NCBI GenBank assembly: GCA_947366545.1
Contig: CANBAL010000002.1
Coordinates: 14,889 to 78,888, forward strand
Length of the DNA stretch: 64,000 nucleotides
Direction of reading: 5' to 3'
Source of the DNA: an uncultured Clostridia bacterium
Lineage (GTDB): Bacteria; Bacillota; Clostridia; Christensenellales; UBA1242
Shown piece after piece: positions 5,914 through 40,715 of the stretch; the stretch's first letter is position 1; the number at the start of each line of letters is the position of its first letter. A program made the translations under genes and the position numbers. The notes under the pieces are model-generated. The model searched no databases, was not told the origin of the DNA, and saw nothing but the letters and a program-made list of their open reading frames with translations.

Positions 5914-5978
5914 TTTCAATATATAGTGGCTATTATGCATACATACTAGCGATATATTGTGTAAAAGAGAGGTTAGGT

Positions 5979-15677: not shown

Positions 15678-16571
15678 TCAACTGATTTTTATAAGTTTAT
15701 TGATATCTTCTGGAAAATCTATTTCAAAATTTAATGTTTTGTTTAGGAAAGGGTGGAAAAAGGAAATCTCTTTGCATACTAGGGCGGAGTGAAAAATCAC
15801 GCTGCTTTTTTTACCGTAAATTTCATCGCCAAGAAGTGGATGCCCGATACTAGATAGATGCAAGCGGATTTGGTGAGTGCGACCATGTTCAAGTTTAAGT
15901 TTGATGAGTGAATAGCCTTCAAGTTGCATAATAGGGGTTACATAAGTAGTAGCAGGCTTGCCATTAGGAGAAATTATCCTTTTGCGTACATTAATGCCGT
16001 TTTCAATTAATGTTTGAATAGGTGAGTTTATCGTAATAGGAGACTGCATAACTCCTTCACATAGTGCATAATAGGTTTTTTCGATATTTTTTATTTTATT
16101 GCAGGCAATTAAATTTTTTGCAAATATTACAATGCCAGCAGTATCTTTGTCAAGGCGATTTAAAACTCTTATAGTAGAGCCTTCGCCTAGATAGTGCATA
16201 ACACCTCCTGACAGGTTATAATCATAATGGGAGCGATTGGGAATGGTGCTTATGCCAGCGGGCTTATTAATTAGGAGGTAGTATGCATCTTCATACACTA
16301 TATCTAGTGGTAGTATGCATGGCATAATACTTGATTTTGAGTTGTCGTTGTTTGCAATTTTTAAAATTTGCCCTTCTTTTATAGGCTCAACTATTTTTAC
16401 GGGAGTGTCATCAAGAAGAATATAACCGATTTGTTTACGCAAAAAAGAAGTGTACCTTTCGGAGACACCATTGCTTTTTAAAAAATGGTACACTGATTTA
16501 TAGTCTTTATCTATGATAAACTGCTGGTATTCCACGGGGTTATTATAGCATTGTTTGAGGGAAGAAAGCAA
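15678..16571 (-). CDS. RluA-family pseudouridine synthase
   Basis: S4-like N-terminus, catalytic NRLDKDTAGIVIFAKN, HGRTHQIRLHL. Start uncertain: TTG with an abutting SD. Confidence 0.85.
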   Translation of the reverse strand: MLSSLKQCYNNPVEYQQFIIDKDYKSVYHFLKSNGVSERYTSFLRKQIGYILLDDTPVKIVEPIKEGQILKIANNDNSKSSIMPCILPLDIVYEDAYYLLINKPAGISTIPNRSHYDYNLSGGVMHYLGEGSTIRVLNRLDKDTAGIVIFAKNLIACNKIKNIEKTYYALCEGVMQSPITINSPIQTLIENGINVRKRIISPNGKPATTYVTPIMQLEGYSLIKLKLEHGRTHQIRLHLSSIGHPLLGDEIYGKKSSVIFHSALVCKEISFFHPFLNKTLNFEIDFPEDINKLIKIS

Positions 16572-23767: not shown

Positions 23768-23796
23768 TTGCATAATTATAAAAAACGATGTATAAT
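23768..23796 (+). promoter_or_regulatory. probable argR promoter
   Basis: TTGCAT (23768-23773), 17-nt spacer, TATAAT (23791-23796). Confidence 0.5.
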
Positions 23797-23807
23797 AATG
23801 AAAAATG

Positions 23808-23825
23808 CATGAATAATCATAAATT
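23808..23825 (+). promoter_or_regulatory. ARG box-like operator 2
   Basis: CATGAATAATCATAAATT (about 12/18 to the consensus), downstream of the -10. Further TGCATAA half-sites nearby. Confidence 0.4.
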
Positions 23826-23888
23826 TATAATTATGCATAATGGCTACAACCCCCGAAAATAAAGAGATGTAGCGATTTAGGAGGAAAA

Positions 23889-27937: not shown

Positions 27938-28975
27938 TTATTCTCCTCTTAGTTTTACTTTGTCAGCAACACTTTTGCGCATATCTTCATTAATGGCTGC
28001 GTAGTGTTTCTTGGTTGTGTTTACATCCTTATGGCCAAGCACATCAGCGACGATATATATATCTTTGGTTTCGCGATACAGATTAGTGCCATATGTACTG
28101 CGCAGTTTATGTGGAGAAATTTTTTTAAGAGGGGAGGCGATACGTGCAAATTTTTTGACTAAGTTTTCGACAGCTCTTACAGAGATTCGCTTATTTTGAA
28201 GAGAAATAAACATTGCTTTTTCGTCTTTATCAAGTTCGAGAGTGGCGCGTTTTTCTAGCCATGTTTTTAGTGCCATTGCCACTTCATTTGAGAAATATAG
28301 CATAGACTGGTTTCCGCCTTTTCTGGTCACTATAAAGGCGTTTTGGTTAAAGTCAAAACTTTCCACATTAAGGCCAACAAGTTCGCTAATACGGATGCCT
28401 GTGCCAAGGAAAAGGGTGATGATGGCGTTGTCGCGCTCAAAGGTGTTTTTATTGTACGAAATTTGCTTTTGTGAAAAATCGGTAGGGTTTTCGACCGCAT
28501 TCATAAGTGCGGACACCTCATTTTGCTCAAGCTTTATAATTTCTTTATTATGTAGTTTTGGTGTTTCAATTTTACTAGCGATATTTGCGGATAGCATGTC
28601 GTGATTAAATAGATACTTAAACAGGCTTCGTAGAGACGCAAGTTTTCTTGCTTTTCCTCTTTCACTGTTTCTATATGTTTTGCCGTCTTTTTCATAAAGG
28701 GCAATATATGACAGGAATTGCTCTATATGGCGGGATTTTAGGGTGTCTAAGTCGGCAGTAGTGATGTTTTCTGGTGGCTTTTTAAATACAAATTCGCTCA
28801 GGTAATCAAAAAACACAGAAAAATCCATGGCGTAATTGTATCTAGTAAGTGAACTTGTGTTATTTTCCACACCTACAAAGAAGTCATAACAAAATTCTGG
28901 AAGATTATCAAGGTATTTTCCAGTTTTAACTCTGTTTTGCATATCGCGTCTTTCATAGAAAGAAGGTTTTCCCAT
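27938..28975 (-). CDS. tyrosine site-specific recombinase (Xer/phage-integrase family)
   Basis: 345 aa. SAM-like N-domain. Catalytic residues in context: TGIRISE (R), HKLRST (H-x-x-R), VLGHKDVNTTKKHY (H...Y). Confidence 0.9.
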   Translation of the reverse strand: MGKPSFYERRDMQNRVKTGKYLDNLPEFCYDFFVGVENNTSSLTRYNYAMDFSVFFDYLSEFVFKKPPENITTADLDTLKSRHIEQFLSYIALYEKDGKTYRNSERGKARKLASLRSLFKYLFNHDMLSANIASKIETPKLHNKEIIKLEQNEVSALMNAVENPTDFSQKQISYNKNTFERDNAIITLFLGTGIRISELVGLNVESFDFNQNAFIVTRKGGNQSMLYFSNEVAMALKTWLEKRATLELDKDEKAMFISLQNKRISVRAVENLVKKFARIASPLKKISPHKLRSTYGTNLYRETKDIYIVADVLGHKDVNTTKKHYAAINEDMRKSVADKVKLRGE

Positions 28976-28981
28976 GTTTCT

Positions 28982-29010
28982 ATTATATCTTATTTTTATT
29001 TTATTGTAAA
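28982..29010 (-). promoter_or_regulatory. promoter of the recombinase gene, probably giving a leaderless mRNA
   Basis: Minus strand: TTTACA (29010-29005), 17-nt spacer, TATAAT (28987-28982), then AGAAAC and ATG (28975). No SD sequence. Confidence 0.55.
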
Positions 29011-29029
29011 GTAATTTTGACCACCATAT

Positions 29030-29061
29030 ATTGTGGCTAGTATGTGCATATTAGCCACAAT
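29030..29061. repeat. 32-bp palindrome (site A): ATTGTGGCTA-N12-TAGCCACAAT
   Basis: Perfect 10-bp arms with 12-bp spacer GTATGTGCATAT. 29026-29050 recurs at 40680-40704 (24/25 identical). Confidence 0.9.
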
Positions 29062-29147
29062 TAAGGCAATACTTAGATAGTATTGATTTAAAAATAGTTG
29101 CTTTTATTATATTTAATATTTATAATTAACTCATATAAGGAGAAAAA

Positions 29148-30431
29148 ATGATAGACATAAATTTGATCAGGACAAATCCAGACCTTGTAAAAGGAAATAT
29201 TAAAAAGAAATTTCAGGAGCAAAAACTTCCGCTTGTTGATGAAGCGGCCGCTCTTGACGGCAAAATTCGTGCGCTAAAACAGGAAGGTGATGCACTTCGA
29301 GCAAGCAGAAACACGCTTTCTAACCAAATTGGGGCACTTATGCGTGAGAAAAAGATTGATGACGCAAATAAGGTGAAGGCACAGGTGGTTAAAAACAACG
29401 AGAGAATCTCTGAAATTGAGGCGCAGGAGCAAGAACTTTCTGCTTCTTTGCGTAAAATCATGCTGACAATACCAAACATAATTGACAAAAGCGTGCCTAT
29501 TGGTAAGGATGACAGCGAAAATGTGGAAGTAGAGAGGTTTGGGGAGCCAAAAGTGCCTAACTATGAGATTCCATATCATGCTGATATCCTTGAAAGCCTA
29601 TCTGGGGCAGATTTTGAAAGCGCAAGAAGGACAAGCGGTACTGGTTTTTATTATCTACTTGGTGATATTGCAAGGCTTCATTCCGCTATACTTGCCTATG
29701 CGCGTGATTTTATGATAGACCACGGCTTTACTTATTGCATTCCGCCATTTATGATTAGAAGTGATGTTGTGAATGGTGTTATGAGCTTTGACGAAATGGA
29801 AAACATGATGTATAAAATCGAAGGGGAAGATTTATACCTTATTGGTACAAGTGAGCACTCTATGATTGGTCGATTTAAGGATACAACTCTTAAAGAAAGT
29901 GCCTTGCCACAATGTTTGACATCATATTCTCCATGTTTTAGAAAGGAAATAGGCGCTCACGGAATTGAGGAACGAGGCGTGTATCGTGTGCACCAGTTTG
30001 AAAAACAAGAGATGATTGTTGTTTGTAAGCCAGAGGACTCTATGGATTGGTATGAAAAGATGTGGAGACTTTCTGTTGAACTATTCCGCAGTATGGATAT
30101 CCCAGTACGCCAACTTGAATGCTGCAGCGGTGATTTGGCCGATCTTAAGGTTAAAAGTTGCGATATTGAGGCTTGGAGCCCTAGACAAAAGAAATATTTT
30201 GAGGTTTGCTCTTGCTCTAATTTAGGCGATGCTCAGGCTAGACGCCTTGGAATTAAGTATAAAACAGATAAAGGTGCGGTTTTAGCACATACACTTAATA
30301 ATACTGTTGTTGCGCCACCACGAATGCTTATTGCATTTTTAGAGAATAATTATAATGAGGATGGTAGCATTCGCATTCCTAAGGCTTTGCAGCCTTATAT
30401 GGGTGGAAAAACCGTTATTACTAAAAAATAG
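29148..30431 (+). CDS. serS: serine--tRNA ligase
   Basis: N-terminal coiled-coil arm, class II core (FRKEIGAHG, TLNNTVVAPPRMLIAFLENN). Confidence 0.97.
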   Translation: MIDINLIRTNPDLVKGNIKKKFQEQKLPLVDEAAALDGKIRALKQEGDALRASRNTLSNQIGALMREKKIDDANKVKAQVVKNNERISEIEAQEQELSASLRKIMLTIPNIIDKSVPIGKDDSENVEVERFGEPKVPNYEIPYHADILESLSGADFESARRTSGTGFYYLLGDIARLHSAILAYARDFMIDHGFTYCIPPFMIRSDVVNGVMSFDEMENMMYKIEGEDLYLIGTSEHSMIGRFKDTTLKESALPQCLTSYSPCFRKEIGAHGIEERGVYRVHQFEKQEMIVVCKPEDSMDWYEKMWRLSVELFRSMDIPVRQLECCSGDLADLKVKSCDIEAWSPRQKKYFEVCSCSNLGDAQARRLGIKYKTDKGAVLAHTLNNTVVAPPRMLIAFLENNYNEDGSIRIPKALQPYMGGKTVITKK

Positions 30432-30439
30432 GAGAAAAA

Positions 30440-31399
30440 ATGAAGGTACAAATCAGTAAATCGCTTATTGAAAGCATCATTAGAAATGAAAACACGCAGT
30501 ATATTGAGTCTACAAATGAAAAAGTGAACTCTCTTTTAAGCTACTGTGTGGATGAACTTTCAAGAAAATCGGCATTTATAAGCCTTGATAACACCATTTT
30601 GCAGCCTATGAATGAGCTGATTACTGGTGCTTTTACTGACAACTCAAATTTTGTGTATTTTTTAGGTATCGACAATGCTCAACTTGAGATAAATACGCTT
30701 TCAGCAACTCAATTTTGGAAGAAATTTAAGGAACGAATTATTTACGCGTGGCAAAATCGAAATCCTAAGAAGAAAAAGAAAAGAAAAAAGAAAAACAAGG
30801 ATATAGAAGAAAAGAAATTGCCGGAATTTAACCCAGAAAAATACAATTTGTATACGCTTTGTGAAGATTTACAAAATACGCTTGCAAGTAATTTAAGTGT
30901 AACTTCAATCGTTTATAGAGAAAATAATCGTCTGAGAATTGTTGGAAAAGATGATTTTGGTTCCAGCGTGCAAATTATAATTTATCCCGTATTTACTGAT
31001 GGCGAAGTTTACAAGTATTTTGTAGACAAAAAGAAAGGGTTTATAAAAATTAATAATGATTTGCGTGTTACAGCACTTGAAAGCAAAGTAAATTCAGTAG
31101 GTGAGTCTTTTATCGACCTTTTGAAAGTGTTTAATGTGCTTTATTATAACGCAAACAGAGTTTTGCCTAATCAAATTTTTATGGAAAGTTTATTGTGTAA
31201 TTGTCCTAATGAACTTTTTAGCGAAAATGTCTATGATTCATTTACAAAAATATTGAATTATCTTACTATGTCGAATATAAAAAATTTTAAAAGCATAGTA
31301 AATCCAAATAAAGATATTTTTGTAGACCAGTTATGCGGAAATAGCGCATATGGATATAGAAAAATGATAAATATGCTATTAGATATAAAAAATGATTAA
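30440..31399 (+). CDS. hypothetical protein, possibly degenerate nucleotidyltransferase-fold (OAS/cGAS-like helical signature)
   Basis: 319 aa. Starts 8 nt after the serS stop, with RBS AGGAG. FIDLLKVFN...LPNQIFMESLLCNCP resembles the NTase C-terminal helical domain. Canonical GS / DxD motifs are not evident. Poly-Lys insert NPKKKKKRKKKNK. Confidence 0.55.
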   Translation: MKVQISKSLIESIIRNENTQYIESTNEKVNSLLSYCVDELSRKSAFISLDNTILQPMNELITGAFTDNSNFVYFLGIDNAQLEINTLSATQFWKKFKERIIYAWQNRNPKKKKKRKKKNKDIEEKKLPEFNPEKYNLYTLCEDLQNTLASNLSVTSIVYRENNRLRIVGKDDFGSSVQIIIYPVFTDGEVYKYFVDKKKGFIKINNDLRVTALESKVNSVGESFIDLLKVFNVLYYNANRVLPNQIFMESLLCNCPNELFSENVYDSFTKILNYLTMSNIKNFKSIVNPNKDIFVDQLCGNSAYGYRKMINMLLDIKND

Positions 31400-31464
31400 T
31401 TTGATGCATTTTTATGCAAAAATTTTAATTATTAAAAAATAACATAATAGTTGTGTTTTTAAAG

Positions 31465-31538
31465 CTAGTATGCGGTATTCTATGCGTAAAAGTTGTGTTT
31501 TACGCATAGAATATAAAAGTTGCATACTAGTGTTTTTT
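31465..31538 (+). terminator. long-stem intrinsic terminator of the serS operon
   Basis: CTAGTATGC / GCATACTAG outer stem plus a 16-bp perfect inner stem TATTCTATGCGTAAAA / TTTTACGCATAGAATA, followed by TGTTTTTTG. Confidence 0.75.
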
Positions 31539-31630
31539 GTCCCCGTTTTGACAAATGTGTTGTGGGTTTGAAATATGAGATGTTCCCTATTTGATTTAAT
31601 ATCCACCCTGCTTTATTTCAAAATCCCCTA

Positions 31631-31659
31631 TTGACAACAGGGTTAATGTATGATAAAAT
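31631..31659 (+). promoter_or_regulatory. consensus sigma-A promoter
   Basis: TTGACA (31631-31636), 17-nt spacer, TGaTAAAAT extended -10 (31654-31659). Confidence 0.65.
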
Positions 31660-31680
31660 GAAATATAAATGGAGGGAAAT

Positions 31681-32127
31681 ATGAAATTTGAATACATAAA
31701 ATCTAAAGAGCAATTAGAGAAAATTTTTAAAGATTTGCCAGATCTGAGGGTTGAGTTTGAAGAGAAAATTGGTTATTTAATTCGTTCAACTGCCACAAAT
31801 ATAAAAGAAGATGGCACATTTGAAAAAGTTGCGTTTCCTACTCATGAAATAGCGTATATAGCAAGTGATTTTGAGGTGAAGTTATTTGATGATAATGAAA
31901 CTTTAAGTAAATGGATGAATAAGAGATTACATAATGCACTTGTAAGGCAAAATGGTTATACCACAAAGTGGTTTAAATATATTGATGCTGATTATAATAG
32001 GCGCTATGAAAAAATAGATCAGGAGAGAAAAAAGTTGAAAGCTTGGTATAACAGTAAAACAGATGAAATACATCAAGCCATTATAGACACAATAGGCACG
32101 ATTTACAACGATGACGAAAGCGAATAA
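31681..32127 (+). CDS. hypothetical protein with acidic C-terminus
   Basis: 148 aa from ATG 31681, 5 nt after GGAGGG. The 31669 start overlaps the RBS. Ends ...NDDESE. Confidence 0.55.
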   Translation: MKFEYIKSKEQLEKIFKDLPDLRVEFEEKIGYLIRSTATNIKEDGTFEKVAFPTHEIAYIASDFEVKLFDDNETLSKWMNKRLHNALVRQNGYTTKWFKYIDADYNRRYEKIDQERKKLKAWYNSKTDEIHQAIIDTIGTIYNDDESE

Positions 32128-33341: not shown

Positions 33342-33409
33342 GCTTATCTCCTTTAACGCAGATATTATACCATATTATTCACATTTGTCAAGTGCGACAT
33401 CTTTTAGAA

Positions 33410-33465
33410 CACTATTATGCAGTGCATATTAGCACAAGATATGGCAAAATTTTTGCATAATAGTG
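33410..33465. repeat. 12-bp perfect inverted repeat CACTATTATGCA-N32-TGCATAATAGTG enclosing GTGCATATTAGCACAA (site D)
   Basis: Lies just upstream of the -35 of the PadR-like gene. The inner 12-mer GTGCATATTAGC is shared with site A (29044-29055). Confidence 0.8.
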
Positions 33466-33474
33466 CCAATTTAT

Positions 33475-33535: not shown

Positions 33536-35182
33536 ATGGATATTTACGCAAAAGGTCAACTTTCTTTCTTGATTTTAAACTGTCTTTTAGAGAGAGATTT
33601 TTATGGGCTTGATATTATCACTGAGATAAGAGATCGCACCAACGGGAAGATGGATTTAAAGAAGCCGAGCGTTTATTCCAACCTTACAAGAATGGAAAAA
33701 CAAGGACTTGTTTCTTCCTATTTGCAGTCCAGTGATCTTGGCCCTAACAGACGCTATTACAGCATTACTGAAAGAGGAAGAAAGACCCATCAAGAGTTAA
33801 AAGAAGAGTTTGAACGCAATCATTTTGATGTGTTTAGAGATTTTGGCGAGGCTGAGGCTATAATACAGCCTATTGTATCAGAGCAAGTGCAGCCTGCACC
33901 TGCTCCCGTGCAAGCGGAGGTGGAAGAAGATGAAGAAATTGGGGATTTCTTTGATTTCTCTTCGTTTGATAGTCCTAAAGAAATTGTAAAAGAGGAAGAG
34001 AAAGTTGAAGAACCTGTGCAAGAAACGGTAGTAGAAGAACCTGTGCAAGAAGTCATTTTAGAAAAGCCTACTATAGAGCCAGTGCAAGCACCTGCACCAG
34101 AGCCAACGCCTTATGTCTCCCCTCTTAAAGCACAAGCCGAGGAGGTAAAACAAGCAAGTTTTGATGACCCTGATTATAACAAGCGCATATATGACATTAC
34201 CAAGGATTTTAACAAATATCGCAAAAAGAGAAGTTTTGCAGAAGATCAAATGGCAATGGAAGTGAAAGAAAGCGATTTGTCACTTAATGATGCTGAAGCA
34301 AAAAGACAACAAAAGGTGGAAGACTTTAAAACTGCTCTTCTTGAAAGCAAGGGGCGTTTTGGCGAGAGAATGGCTGAGGAAGAATTTAAAAGACCTGCTG
34401 TCACGTCTGCACCTGCAAGACCAATGCCAGTGCCAACTGTTGCCGTGCAAGAGGAAGAAGAAAAGCAGGATGACGGCGTGTTCATAAAAACCCGAGTAGA
34501 GCGGGAAAATGTTATGCGCAGCCGCAAGATTGAGCCTCCAAGACTTAAAATTATCAATGAAAATCCTCCCCTTCCAGCACCTAAGCGTGATGCGAATATT
34601 GACCCTTCTCACAAGGAAATTATTTCACAGTTATATTCAAAGAGCAAAGGCAGCGAGCCTATTCATGAAGAACTTGATATTGGACTTTATGACTATGATG
34701 ACCTTGCCGATTATTACAAATCAAGCAACATCTCCTTTAGAACTTATGAGCAAAGTAAAGCGAAAACAAAGCATAACACAAACAAACTTAATATGATAAC
34801 CTCGGTTTTAACATTTACTTTATTATGTATTTTCTCCAGCATTTTATTCGCGGTGTTATATACTCAACATTTGACTAATCCGAACACGAGTTTCCTCTAC
34901 ATAATTATTCCTGGAGCATATTTTATTGATGTTTGTGCTAGAATTTCCGCACTTAAAAATACGAGTTGGGAGCCAAAGCCAATGCTTCCTCAGTGGTTTA
35001 TGTGGATTATGACATTGCTTTGTGCGGGCGTGGTTGTCGGACTTAACTTCCTATTTGGAATGAATACAGGCAATATTCAGCCTTTCTATACAACACTTAC
35101 ATTGCCTCTTGCTTCAATAATTGCGGTGTTACCTTTCCACTATTATTTGAAACGAGGACTTTACATCAAACATTGGAGATAG
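33536..35182 (+). CDS. membrane-anchored PadR-family transcriptional regulator
   Basis: N-terminal PadR winged helix (LSFLILNCLLERDFYGLDIITEI...KKPSVYSNLTRMEKQGLV), long P/E/V/Q-rich repetitive linker, about 4 C-terminal TM helices. Confidence 0.8.
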   Translation: MDIYAKGQLSFLILNCLLERDFYGLDIITEIRDRTNGKMDLKKPSVYSNLTRMEKQGLVSSYLQSSDLGPNRRYYSITERGRKTHQELKEEFERNHFDVFRDFGEAEAIIQPIVSEQVQPAPAPVQAEVEEDEEIGDFFDFSSFDSPKEIVKEEEKVEEPVQETVVEEPVQEVILEKPTIEPVQAPAPEPTPYVSPLKAQAEEVKQASFDDPDYNKRIYDITKDFNKYRKKRSFAEDQMAMEVKESDLSLNDAEAKRQQKVEDFKTALLESKGRFGERMAEEEFKRPAVTSAPARPMPVPTVAVQEEEEKQDDGVFIKTRVERENVMRSRKIEPPRLKIINENPPLPAPKRDANIDPSHKEIISQLYSKSKGSEPIHEELDIGLYDYDDLADYYKSSNISFRTYEQSKAKTKHNTNKLNMITSVLTFTLLCIFSSILFAVLYTQHLTNPNTSFLYIIIPGAYFIDVCARISALKNTSWEPKPMLPQWFMWIMTLLCAGVVVGLNFLFGMNTGNIQPFYTTLTLPLASIIAVLPFHYYLKRGLYIKHWR

Positions 35183-35283
35183 CATTACTTTTCTAGATTA
35201 GAAAAGTAACAAAAGACTTGAGGGGTTGCGATTCCCCTCAAACTCCCACAAACGCTTTCTAAGCAGAAGATAAAAAAGAATCA

Positions 35284-36571: not shown

Positions 36572-36786
36572 TTTTCCTCCTTATTTTTCTTCCTAAAAAA
36601 GGAAACTATACATAGCGCAAATGGAATGGCACATACGCCTATAATAAGCGGCGTCAATGGGACAAGTAGTCCCCTTAATTCAAACACATCTACCCCACAA
36701 GCATCAAGAATAGGAATATACGCAAAACTTATACCTATAAGTCCTAACGACAATACTGTTAAAACAATTTTCCAAAAAAGTTTCAT
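36568..36786 (-). CDS. hypothetical small membrane protein
   Basis: 72 aa, two TM helices, ATGA overlap with the hydrolase gene. Confidence 0.45.
   Translation of the reverse strand: MKLFWKIVLTVLSLGLIGISFAYIPILDACGVDVFELRGLLVPLTPLIIGVCAIPFALCIVSFFRKKNKEEK

Positions 36787-39526: not shown

Positions 39527-40715
<1,189 letters not shown>

Follow-up and report, generated by a model that had tools for sequence, protein, structure and literature searches.

Genes and sites around the S1 palindrome

A 64-kb window from one genome of an uncultured Clostridia bacterium (64,000 nucleotides of contig CANBAL010000002.1, GenBank assembly GCA_947366545.1) was read; the window is this whole stretch, and all coordinates are window positions. 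It contains a gene encoding a tyrosine recombinase similar to XerS and, divergent from it, the seryl-tRNA synthetase gene serS. The 172-bp spacer between these genes harbors a palindrome, named here S1, which an earlier note on this DNA proposed to be a dif-like core recombination site. The case calls for caution: a perfect palindrome by a recombinase gene near the replication terminus resembled dif, whereas comparison across genomes favors a regulatory site instead. The features of the spacer and its two genes are the following.

29030-29061, no strand: S1, a palindrome with perfect 10-bp arms (inverted-repeat listing, shuffles)
29021-29036, no strand: 16-bp outer box CCACCATATATTGTGG (CAC-N8-GTG), overlapping the left arm of S1 (read from the sequence)
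27938-28975, minus strand: 345-aa tyrosine recombinase, XerS-like (translation, profile matches)
28982-29010, minus strand: predicted sigma-70-type promoter of the recombinase gene (consensus scan)
29148-30431, plus strand: serS, seryl-tRNA synthetase (Pfam matches of orthologues), divergent from the recombinase gene

The arms of S1, ATTGTGGCTA (29030-29039) and TAGCCACAAT (29052-29061), are perfectly complementary and enclose a 12-nt center, GTATGTGCATAT (29040-29051), just as described in the earlier note. The dyad symmetry extends inward, with 14 of the 15 positions paired in 15-nt arms around a 2-nt center, and thus S1 can also be written in the 13-6-13 form ATTGTGGCTAGTA, TGTGCA, TATTAGCCACAAT. 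Only one instance of the two-arm pattern exists in the window, and 100 shuffles produced none. The fold of S1 as single-stranded DNA has z = -2.7, a value equalled by three of 200 shuffles.

The predicted promoter of the recombinase gene consists of TTTACA (29010-29005), a 17-nt spacer and TATAAT (28987-28982). The near end of S1 is 19 nt from the -35 box, in agreement with the initial estimate of about 20 nt, and S1 spans approximately -55 to -86 relative to the recombinase ATG. The distance from the end of the -10 box to the ATG is 6 nt in the window and 6-8 nt over many homologous loci, and no Shine-Dalgarno sequence precedes the ATG in the window or in the loci of many relatives. Thus the recombinase mRNA is probably leaderless. 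S1 itself, with promoters diverging on either side, is probably untranscribed and should therefore act as double-stranded DNA. S1 does not qualify as an intrinsic terminator, as it has no T-run and is flanked by divergent promoters, and the terminator scan did not call it.

Two other assignments of S1 were considered and rejected. An arm segment, TGTGGCTAA, is identical at 8 of 9 positions to TGTGGATAA, the complement of the DnaA box, yet the orthologous sites do not keep this match. The motifs CATA-TA and TTGCAT could be read as parts of promoters for the sporulation factors sigma-G/F/E/K or for sigma-54; however, the necessary -35 or -24 elements are wrongly spaced, as judged by eye. serS is preceded by a short region (29062-29147) in which Rfam shows no T-box, an unusual arrangement for an aminoacyl-tRNA synthetase gene of a Firmicute. 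Over the interval 28900-31750 Rfam gave no match even at E <= 1.

The recombinase has the complete catalytic set R-K-H-R-H-Y (in GTGIRISE, RKGGN, HKLRST, LGHKD and KKHYAA) and contains the Pfam domain Phage_integrase and a SAM-like N-terminal domain; an arm-binding domain was not detected by the profile and domain searches. Its top match in NCBIfam is XerS (NF003462) with 184.6 bits over profile positions 8-356 of 360, which does not reach the XerS cut-off of 267. XerC, XerA and XerD rank next, and the cut-offs for XerC and XerD are likewise not reached. The nearest solved structures are XerA and XerD, with a weaker similarity to XerH (5jjv, E = 2e-8). The recombinase family is very large, with more than 8000 clusters scored and the top 120 at 75-100% identity. 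It is at home in uncultured gut Clostridia, in records labelled Christensenella-like or 'Candidatus Caccovivens'.

S-type sites in the window and in related genomes

S1 belongs to a family of sites, referred to below as S-type. The half-site is approximately (TTG)CATA[AC]TA[GC]-nCAC-AATAT, and the copies alternate in orientation. Two kinds of junctions are formed, the inner one being TATG-N-CATA, and the outer one, CAC-N8-GTG, being the 16-bp box. The other members found in the window, and the regulator gene adjacent to one of them, are as follows.

40684-40715, same orientation as S1: S2, ATTGTGCCTAGTATGTGCATAATTCACACAAT, near-identical copy of S1 in the queA-tgt spacer
33400-33470, no strand: S-type palindrome ACTATTATGCA-G-TGCATATTAG with an extra half-site TTGCATAATAG, in the divergent spacer upstream of the PadR-family gene
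5914-5962, no strand: between obg and a yhbY-like small open reading frame, an S-type site flanked by two 16-bp boxes, inner spacer of 4
33536-35182, plus strand: 548-aa PadR-family protein with an N-terminal winged-helix domain and a long C-terminal part

S2 is identical to S1 at 25 of the 28 core positions and is located 11.6 kb away, in a 55-bp spacer, directly upstream of the ribosome-binding site of tgt. The interval separating the two copies contains serS, the RNase Y gene and the terminus. The members at 5914-5962 and 33400-33470 are weaker than S2. As to the number of copies, a point raised in the earlier note, the strict two-arm pattern is unique in the window, yet a second copy (S2) and weaker relatives are present. 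One more look-alike, ACACTATATCTAGTGG TAGTATG CATGG CATAATAC, is observed at 16285-16340, inside the coding region of a pseudouridine synthase. A metagenome scan with the S1/S2 pattern yielded 29 loci, all from unrelated organisms and none with the neighboring genes, and is uninformative on copy number. A viral scan with the S pattern produced chance-like matches and no sign of an element integrating through Xer.

The sites were compared in 80 loci around recombinase homologues and in ten 21-kb loci from long contigs. Four gene orders were observed; in the lines below, xer is the recombinase gene, S is an S-type site, and o319 is a gene encoding a 319-aa protein.

Order A (this window): o319, serS, S, xer, spoIVB, recN
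Order B: left side as in A, xer followed by rny/tgt/queA
Order C: clpP, tig, xer, S, spoIVB, DUF45, S, padR
Order D: as C, with xer reversed

The terminus module of approximately 7-10 kb, comprising a small multidrug-export-like gene (SmMDR), padR, o319, serS and xer, is inverted relative to its flanks between orders A and B (L017-L036, L072 and L134 versus the window). The recombinase gene alone has opposite orientations in orders C and D (L131 and L133 versus L132). Gene order is especially prone to change 3' of the recombinase gene; in L003 and L004, the closest relatives outside the species of the window, the ribosomal protein genes rplJ-rplL stand there instead of spoIVB.

A recognizable S-type site is found upstream of the recombinase gene in approximately 28 of 46 loci, and about one third of the loci have none. 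At the orthologous position the inner spacer is 2 (approximately 16 loci), 5 (approximately 10 loci) or 4 (one locus). The spacer is 2 in the window and 5 already in relatives with 85-87% protein identity; in general, the inner spacing of 2-5 bp varies among recombinases that are 81-97% identical. Strong dyad symmetry like that in the window is rare, as only about 6 of the 46 loci reach 6 of 8 outer-arm pairs. The inner spacers of paralogous sites are up to 7, 13 or 14; the outer CAC-N8-GTG spacing is fixed across genomes. Considered as a core site, for which inverted arms at an invariant distance around a center of 6-8 bp would be expected across orthologous sites, S1 fails with its spacers of 2, 4 or 5. 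So conserved a recombinase should not accommodate a change of 3 bp between its binding arms, and thus the variation of spacing speaks against crossover at S1.

In the genomes with orders C and D (L131-L133), where nearly all genes have one orientation, S-type palindromes flank the recombinase gene. In L040, an S-type palindrome occupies the convergent spacer between the stop codons of xer and spoIVB. The S-type sites thus follow the recombinase gene even away from the terminus, which argues against dif. Sites at other genes are retained as well: the queA-tgt site is present at the orthologous position in L017/L134, L123 and L124, and an S-type palindrome with spacer 5 is found upstream of padR in six of the seven terminus-type genomes, 90-126 nt from the ATG (240 nt in L134). 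Members of the family are held at orthologous positions in genomes differing by 20-30% in a conserved protein.

The padR gene lies within a few kb of the recombinase gene wherever the fetched DNA reaches, that is, in the 21-kb loci and in many 7-kb loci; in the window the distance is 4.5 kb. A PadR-type operator would be expected to include an inverted repeat upstream of the regulator's own gene and related sites elsewhere. Both were found, and the related sites lie at tgt, yhbY and the recombinase gene. At 548 aa (523-760 aa in relatives), the PadR-family protein is of unusual length; it combines an acidic, proline-rich linker with a hydrophobic, apparently membrane-embedded C-terminal part.

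The terminus and the M2 pair

The convergence of gene orientations and a second palindrome are located on the other side of serS.

35183-35283, no strand: convergence point (gene orientation, cumulative GC skew)
31476-31513 (core 31479-31510), no strand: M2 pair, candidate dif core (inverted-repeat listing, conservation)
31465-31539, plus strand: compound hairpin around the M2 pair, with outer arms CTAGTATGC (31465-31473) and GCATACTAG (31522-31530), then TGTTTTTTG

Nearly all genes are on the plus strand up to 35182 and nearly all are on the minus strand from 35284. The cumulative GC skew peaks at approximately 34-36 kb, and the joint switch of skew and orientation at about 35.2 kb is of the terminus type. 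Thus the proximity to the terminus, to be looked for by GC skew according to the earlier note, was borne out: the S1 locus is approximately 6 kb from the switch. The convergent layout with the skew switch recurs in six relatives (L123, L124, L125, L134, L135, L136), and in all seven genomes the convergence falls between SmMDR and the 3' end of padR. In L131-L133 the skew has one sign over 21 kb, with no switch seen up to 10 kb from the recombinase gene. A 25-bp palindrome at the convergence point (35185-35209) was rejected as a conserved site, since it is not kept in relatives.

The M2 pair is the longest perfect inverted repeat of the window, with 16-bp arms (TATTCTATGCGTAAAA, GTTGTG, TTTTACGCATAGAATA), and is single within it. 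Its core consists of TCTATGCGTAAAA (31479-31491), GTTGTG (31492-31497) and TTTTACGCATAGA (31498-31510), 2.4 kb from S1. The motif TCTATGCGTAAAA-N6-TTTTACGCATAGA is present downstream of o319 in 30 of the 32 loci reaching far enough, and its variants extend to relatives with only 55-62% identity of the recombinase. The center is 6 bp long in all 34 instances (25 distinct sequences), of which 33 come from related genomes and one from an unrelated phage fragment (L130). In the related genomes it is usually [CG]ACA[AG][GC], in one orientation relative to the recombinase gene. Conservation is 0.94-0.95 in the arms, and 0.49 and 0.66 in the flanks. The distance from the pair to the maximum of the cumulative skew is 0-5.3 kb in seven genomes (the window, L123-125, L134-136) and less than 0.5 kb in three of them. 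The same comparison as for S1 has the opposite outcome here: across the orthologous sites the distance between the arms is invariant, and the asymmetric center falls within 6-8 bp.

A lone M2 half-site is found 59-62 nt upstream of the recombinase ATG in approximately 20 loci and is degenerate in the window's own lineage. It is situated in untranscribed DNA, which suggests recognition by a protein rather than RNA pairing. The compound hairpin around the pair may terminate the serS-o319 transcript.

The 319-aa protein encoded by o319 (30440-31399) is conserved and has no match in Pfam or NCBIfam. In all related pair-bearing genomes with a callable open reading frame at this place, distant relatives included, its gene separates the M2 pair from serS (or from the recombinase gene). 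The sole exception is L077, with no open reading frame of at least 100 aa at that position. A viral scan with the M2-pair pattern gave five matches, four of them plain terminator-like hairpins in unrelated phages, and no evident Xer-integrating element. In the phage fragment L130 (IMGVR_UViG_3300028914_002708, positions 1274-1310), the site ACTATGCGTAAAA-GTATAG-TTTTACGCATAGT fully matches the 13-bp M2 arms and is followed by two CACAATATA boxes upstream of the terminase genes. This phage is possibly from the same clade.

Among the known single-recombinase systems, the similarity is greatest on the protein level to XerS: the match covers the full length including the N-terminal extension (345 aa here versus approximately 356 aa). 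As with XerS/difSL, a terminus-type skew switch is only a few kb from the gene in the window and in six relatives, unlike in three genomes of another synteny type. Directly upstream of the recombinase gene there are a palindromic site, with variable spacing and missing in about one third of relatives, and a half-site, degenerate in the window. The inner layout of M2, AAAA-N6-TTTT, resembles the arms of difSL and difH, the sequences being otherwise different (PMC5357621). On the other hand, the score is 184.6 against a cut-off of 267, neither S1 nor M2 resembles the difSL sequence, and M2 is 2.4 kb from the gene rather than adjacent to it and has a center of 6 bp rather than 11 bp. The system would operate in the manner of the single-recombinase modules XerS/difSL and XerH/difH; as both the curated score and the site-sequence tests failed, it was not assigned to XerS. 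In XerH/difH of Helicobacter and Campylobacter, too, one long recombinase is encoded close to its site, and the left arm of difH, AGTTATGAAAA, ends in A4 at the center, as does the left arm of M2 (PMC5357621). However, the sequence relation to XerH is weak (E = 2e-8 versus 5jjv, with XerA and XerD scoring better), and the lineage is different.

With XerCD/dif (28 bp, 11-6-11) the system has in common an Xer-clade tyrosine recombinase near the terminus and the 6-bp center of the candidate core; the protein, however, does not reach the cut-offs of XerC and XerD. A search of the window for canonical dif or difSL was negative: the best match to the E. coli and B. subtilis dif sequences is 19 of 28, the best difSL match is 22 of 31 (at 36766, away from S1 and M2), and none is near the switch. 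The likeness to Cre/loxP, a phage recombinase and its site with a spacer of 8 bp, is in geometry only: both S1 and M2 can be written as 13-bp arms with a short asymmetric center. The full-length best match to XerS and the lack of a canonical dif or difSL in the window favor the gene-plus-site module suggested in the earlier note; S1 as its crossover site is unlikely.

If the 13-6-13 site is confirmed as the place of crossover, a third dif system served by a single recombinase, with its own site sequence, would join XerS/difSL and XerH/difH in bacteria. A large clade of uncultured gut Clostridia would then carry such a system, with a recombinase family of thousands of protein clusters. The site could serve as a marker of the replication terminus in metagenome-assembled genomes, and the recombinase with its site as a new pair for genetic tools.

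Interpretations of S1

On balance, S1 appears to be an operator-like site upstream of a probably leaderless recombinase gene, possibly bound by a PadR-family protein, with the 13-6-13 M2 site as the candidate dif. In such a scheme, a dimeric regulator would bind S1 and tune transcription of the recombinase gene, and perhaps that of serS too, whereas the XerS-like recombinase would perform crossover at 31479-31510 rather than at S1. We infer that S1 is bound by a protein; the identification of this protein is more tentative still, the best candidate being the PadR-family protein encoded nearby. Multiple copies, tolerance to changes of the inner spacing, a member upstream of padR and the proximity of padR itself fit a regulator with relaxed spacing requirements. 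The location of S1 relative to the ATG would be of the kind used by activators or upstream repressor sites. Of the two palindromes, M2 is the likelier candidate for a crossover (dif) site. Thus the fallback possibility of the earlier note, that S1 is simply an operator of the recombinase gene, is the one favored here, and on present evidence S1 would be an ordinary regulatory element in an interesting neighborhood.

The precedent for a PadR-type regulator is cdPadR1 of C. difficile. Its targets are AT-rich inverted repeats that need no strict spacing; matches to its motif number about 200, and an obg promoter is among the DNA that it binds (PMC5050560). The S-type sites are similar in that they are AT-rich inverted repeats with tolerant spacing, occur in multiple copies and have one set upstream of the regulator gene. 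There is also a link to obg, as one S-type site is located just downstream of this gene. The PadR-family protein of the window, with its 548 aa and long C-terminal part, is unlike the cdPadR1 type.

Several observations weigh against this interpretation. The assignment of the PadR-family protein to the S-type sites is based on neighborhood and analogy, and the known PadR motifs, ATGT-N8-ACAT and TACT-N11/12-AGTA, differ from the S-type half-site CATA-TAG-CAC. S1 fits 13-6-13 with an asymmetric center, a legitimate geometry for a tyrosine recombinase. S-type palindromes adjoin the recombinase gene, on both sides in one group of genomes. This linkage, together with the different gene orientations in two synteny types, also fits action of the recombinase at S sites. 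That S1 and S2 are nearly identical within one genome suggests concerted evolution. As to M2, L131-L133, the genomes without a skew switch, showed no pair up to 10 kb from the recombinase gene, and L054 and L032 showed none either. The RNA of the M2 region on the serS-o319 strand folds into a long hairpin followed by a U-run (-48.7 kcal/mol, z = -6.9). Substitutions in the M2 arms are almost always symmetric, and two single-arm changes would be G-U pairs in the serS-o319 transcript. A conserved terminator or RNA element could thus be the main role of the M2 pair, either by itself or next to a role in recombination.

A more elaborate scenario, which we consider rather unlikely, is an undescribed Xer system of uncultured gut Clostridia in which a XerS-like single recombinase acts at the 13-6-13 M2 site, and the S-type sites, S1 included, are accessory or regulatory and are bound by a partner such as the PadR-family, membrane-linked protein. 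The S-type sites would then flank the core, adjoin the recombinase promoter and mark the ends of the segments inverted between lineages.

It is unlikely that S1 is bound by the recombinase itself without crossover of the dif kind, as a site of autoregulation, an accessory or arm-type site, or a substrate of occasional inversions around the gene. Tight linkage of S-type sites to the gene, on either side of it, would agree with such a role. So would the S-type palindrome staying at the 3' end of the gene when its orientation differs between two synteny groups, and the S-type half-sites that also flank the M2 pair. However, the S-type and M2 arms share no sequence, and one DNA-binding surface is unlikely to read both. 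Moreover, a recombinase has no obvious role at queA-tgt, obg-yhbY and padR, where S-type sites are found as well, and the protein has no detected arm-binding domain.

The proposal that S1 is the dif-like core of the XerS-like recombinase, in a gene-plus-site module as in XerS/difSL, seems quite unlikely. In that case two recombinase monomers would bind the inverted arms and strands would be exchanged across the central TGTGCA. The site adjoins the gene, as difSL adjoins xerS (PMC5357621); it can be parsed as 13-6-13 approximately 6 kb from the skew switch, in a window with no canonical dif, and S-type sites are found beside the recombinase gene in every synteny type. Against it stands, firstly, the direct near-identical copy 11.6 kb away. 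The serS and RNase Y genes between the copies are both probably essential, so that recombination between S1 and S2 would delete them and would probably be lethal. Secondly, the inner spacing is not conserved even among closely related recombinases, and about one third of the relatives have no site. Thirdly, the S-type palindromes accompany the gene rather than the terminus and are found there even in the absence of a skew switch. Finally, M2, a better conserved 13-6-13 site, is present nearby.

It is equally doubtful that S1 is one of a set of dispersed extragenic palindromes, of the type of repetitive extragenic palindromes and bacterial interspersed mosaic elements (REP/BIME) or of structural DNA, with no dedicated regulator and tolerated or reused as terminators or spacers. 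Several copies do exist in alternating orientation, often as 'half-site, inverted half-site, half-site', right after stop codons or between genes of operons. Those in convergent spacers have A- and T-runs at their sides, as bidirectional terminators do. The 8-mers CATAATAG and CATACTAG are approximately three times more common than base composition predicts, the expectation being our own estimate. However, the members keep their orthologous positions across genomes at the 20-30% distance mentioned above, S1 between its divergent promoters has no role as a transcript or terminator, and a transposase of the RAYT type was not seen in the window.

The 16-bp boxes match acaCwAtATaTwGtgt, the NrdR-box consensus, at 12-14 of 16 positions (scanned as ACACWATATATWGTGT), and S1 could accordingly be the stretch between two NrdR boxes. 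This is very improbable: although the box pairs are 17-18 bp apart and Listeria NrdR tolerates 14-18 bp in vitro (PMC12051234), natural linkers are 15-16 bp, the 'linker' here is the best conserved part of the site, S1 has one complete box only, and no ribonucleotide reductase genes are adjacent to any of these sites.

ArgR was also considered as a protein binding the S-type sites and was rejected, as they form no full ARG boxes and have no adjacent arginine genes. ARG-box-like palindromes of the form ATTATGCAA-N7-TTGCATAAT are observed upstream of argR in the window (23769-23838) and in L131 (18175), L132 (2019) and L133 (18091). Their half-site TGCATAAT is common to the inner arms of the S-type sites.

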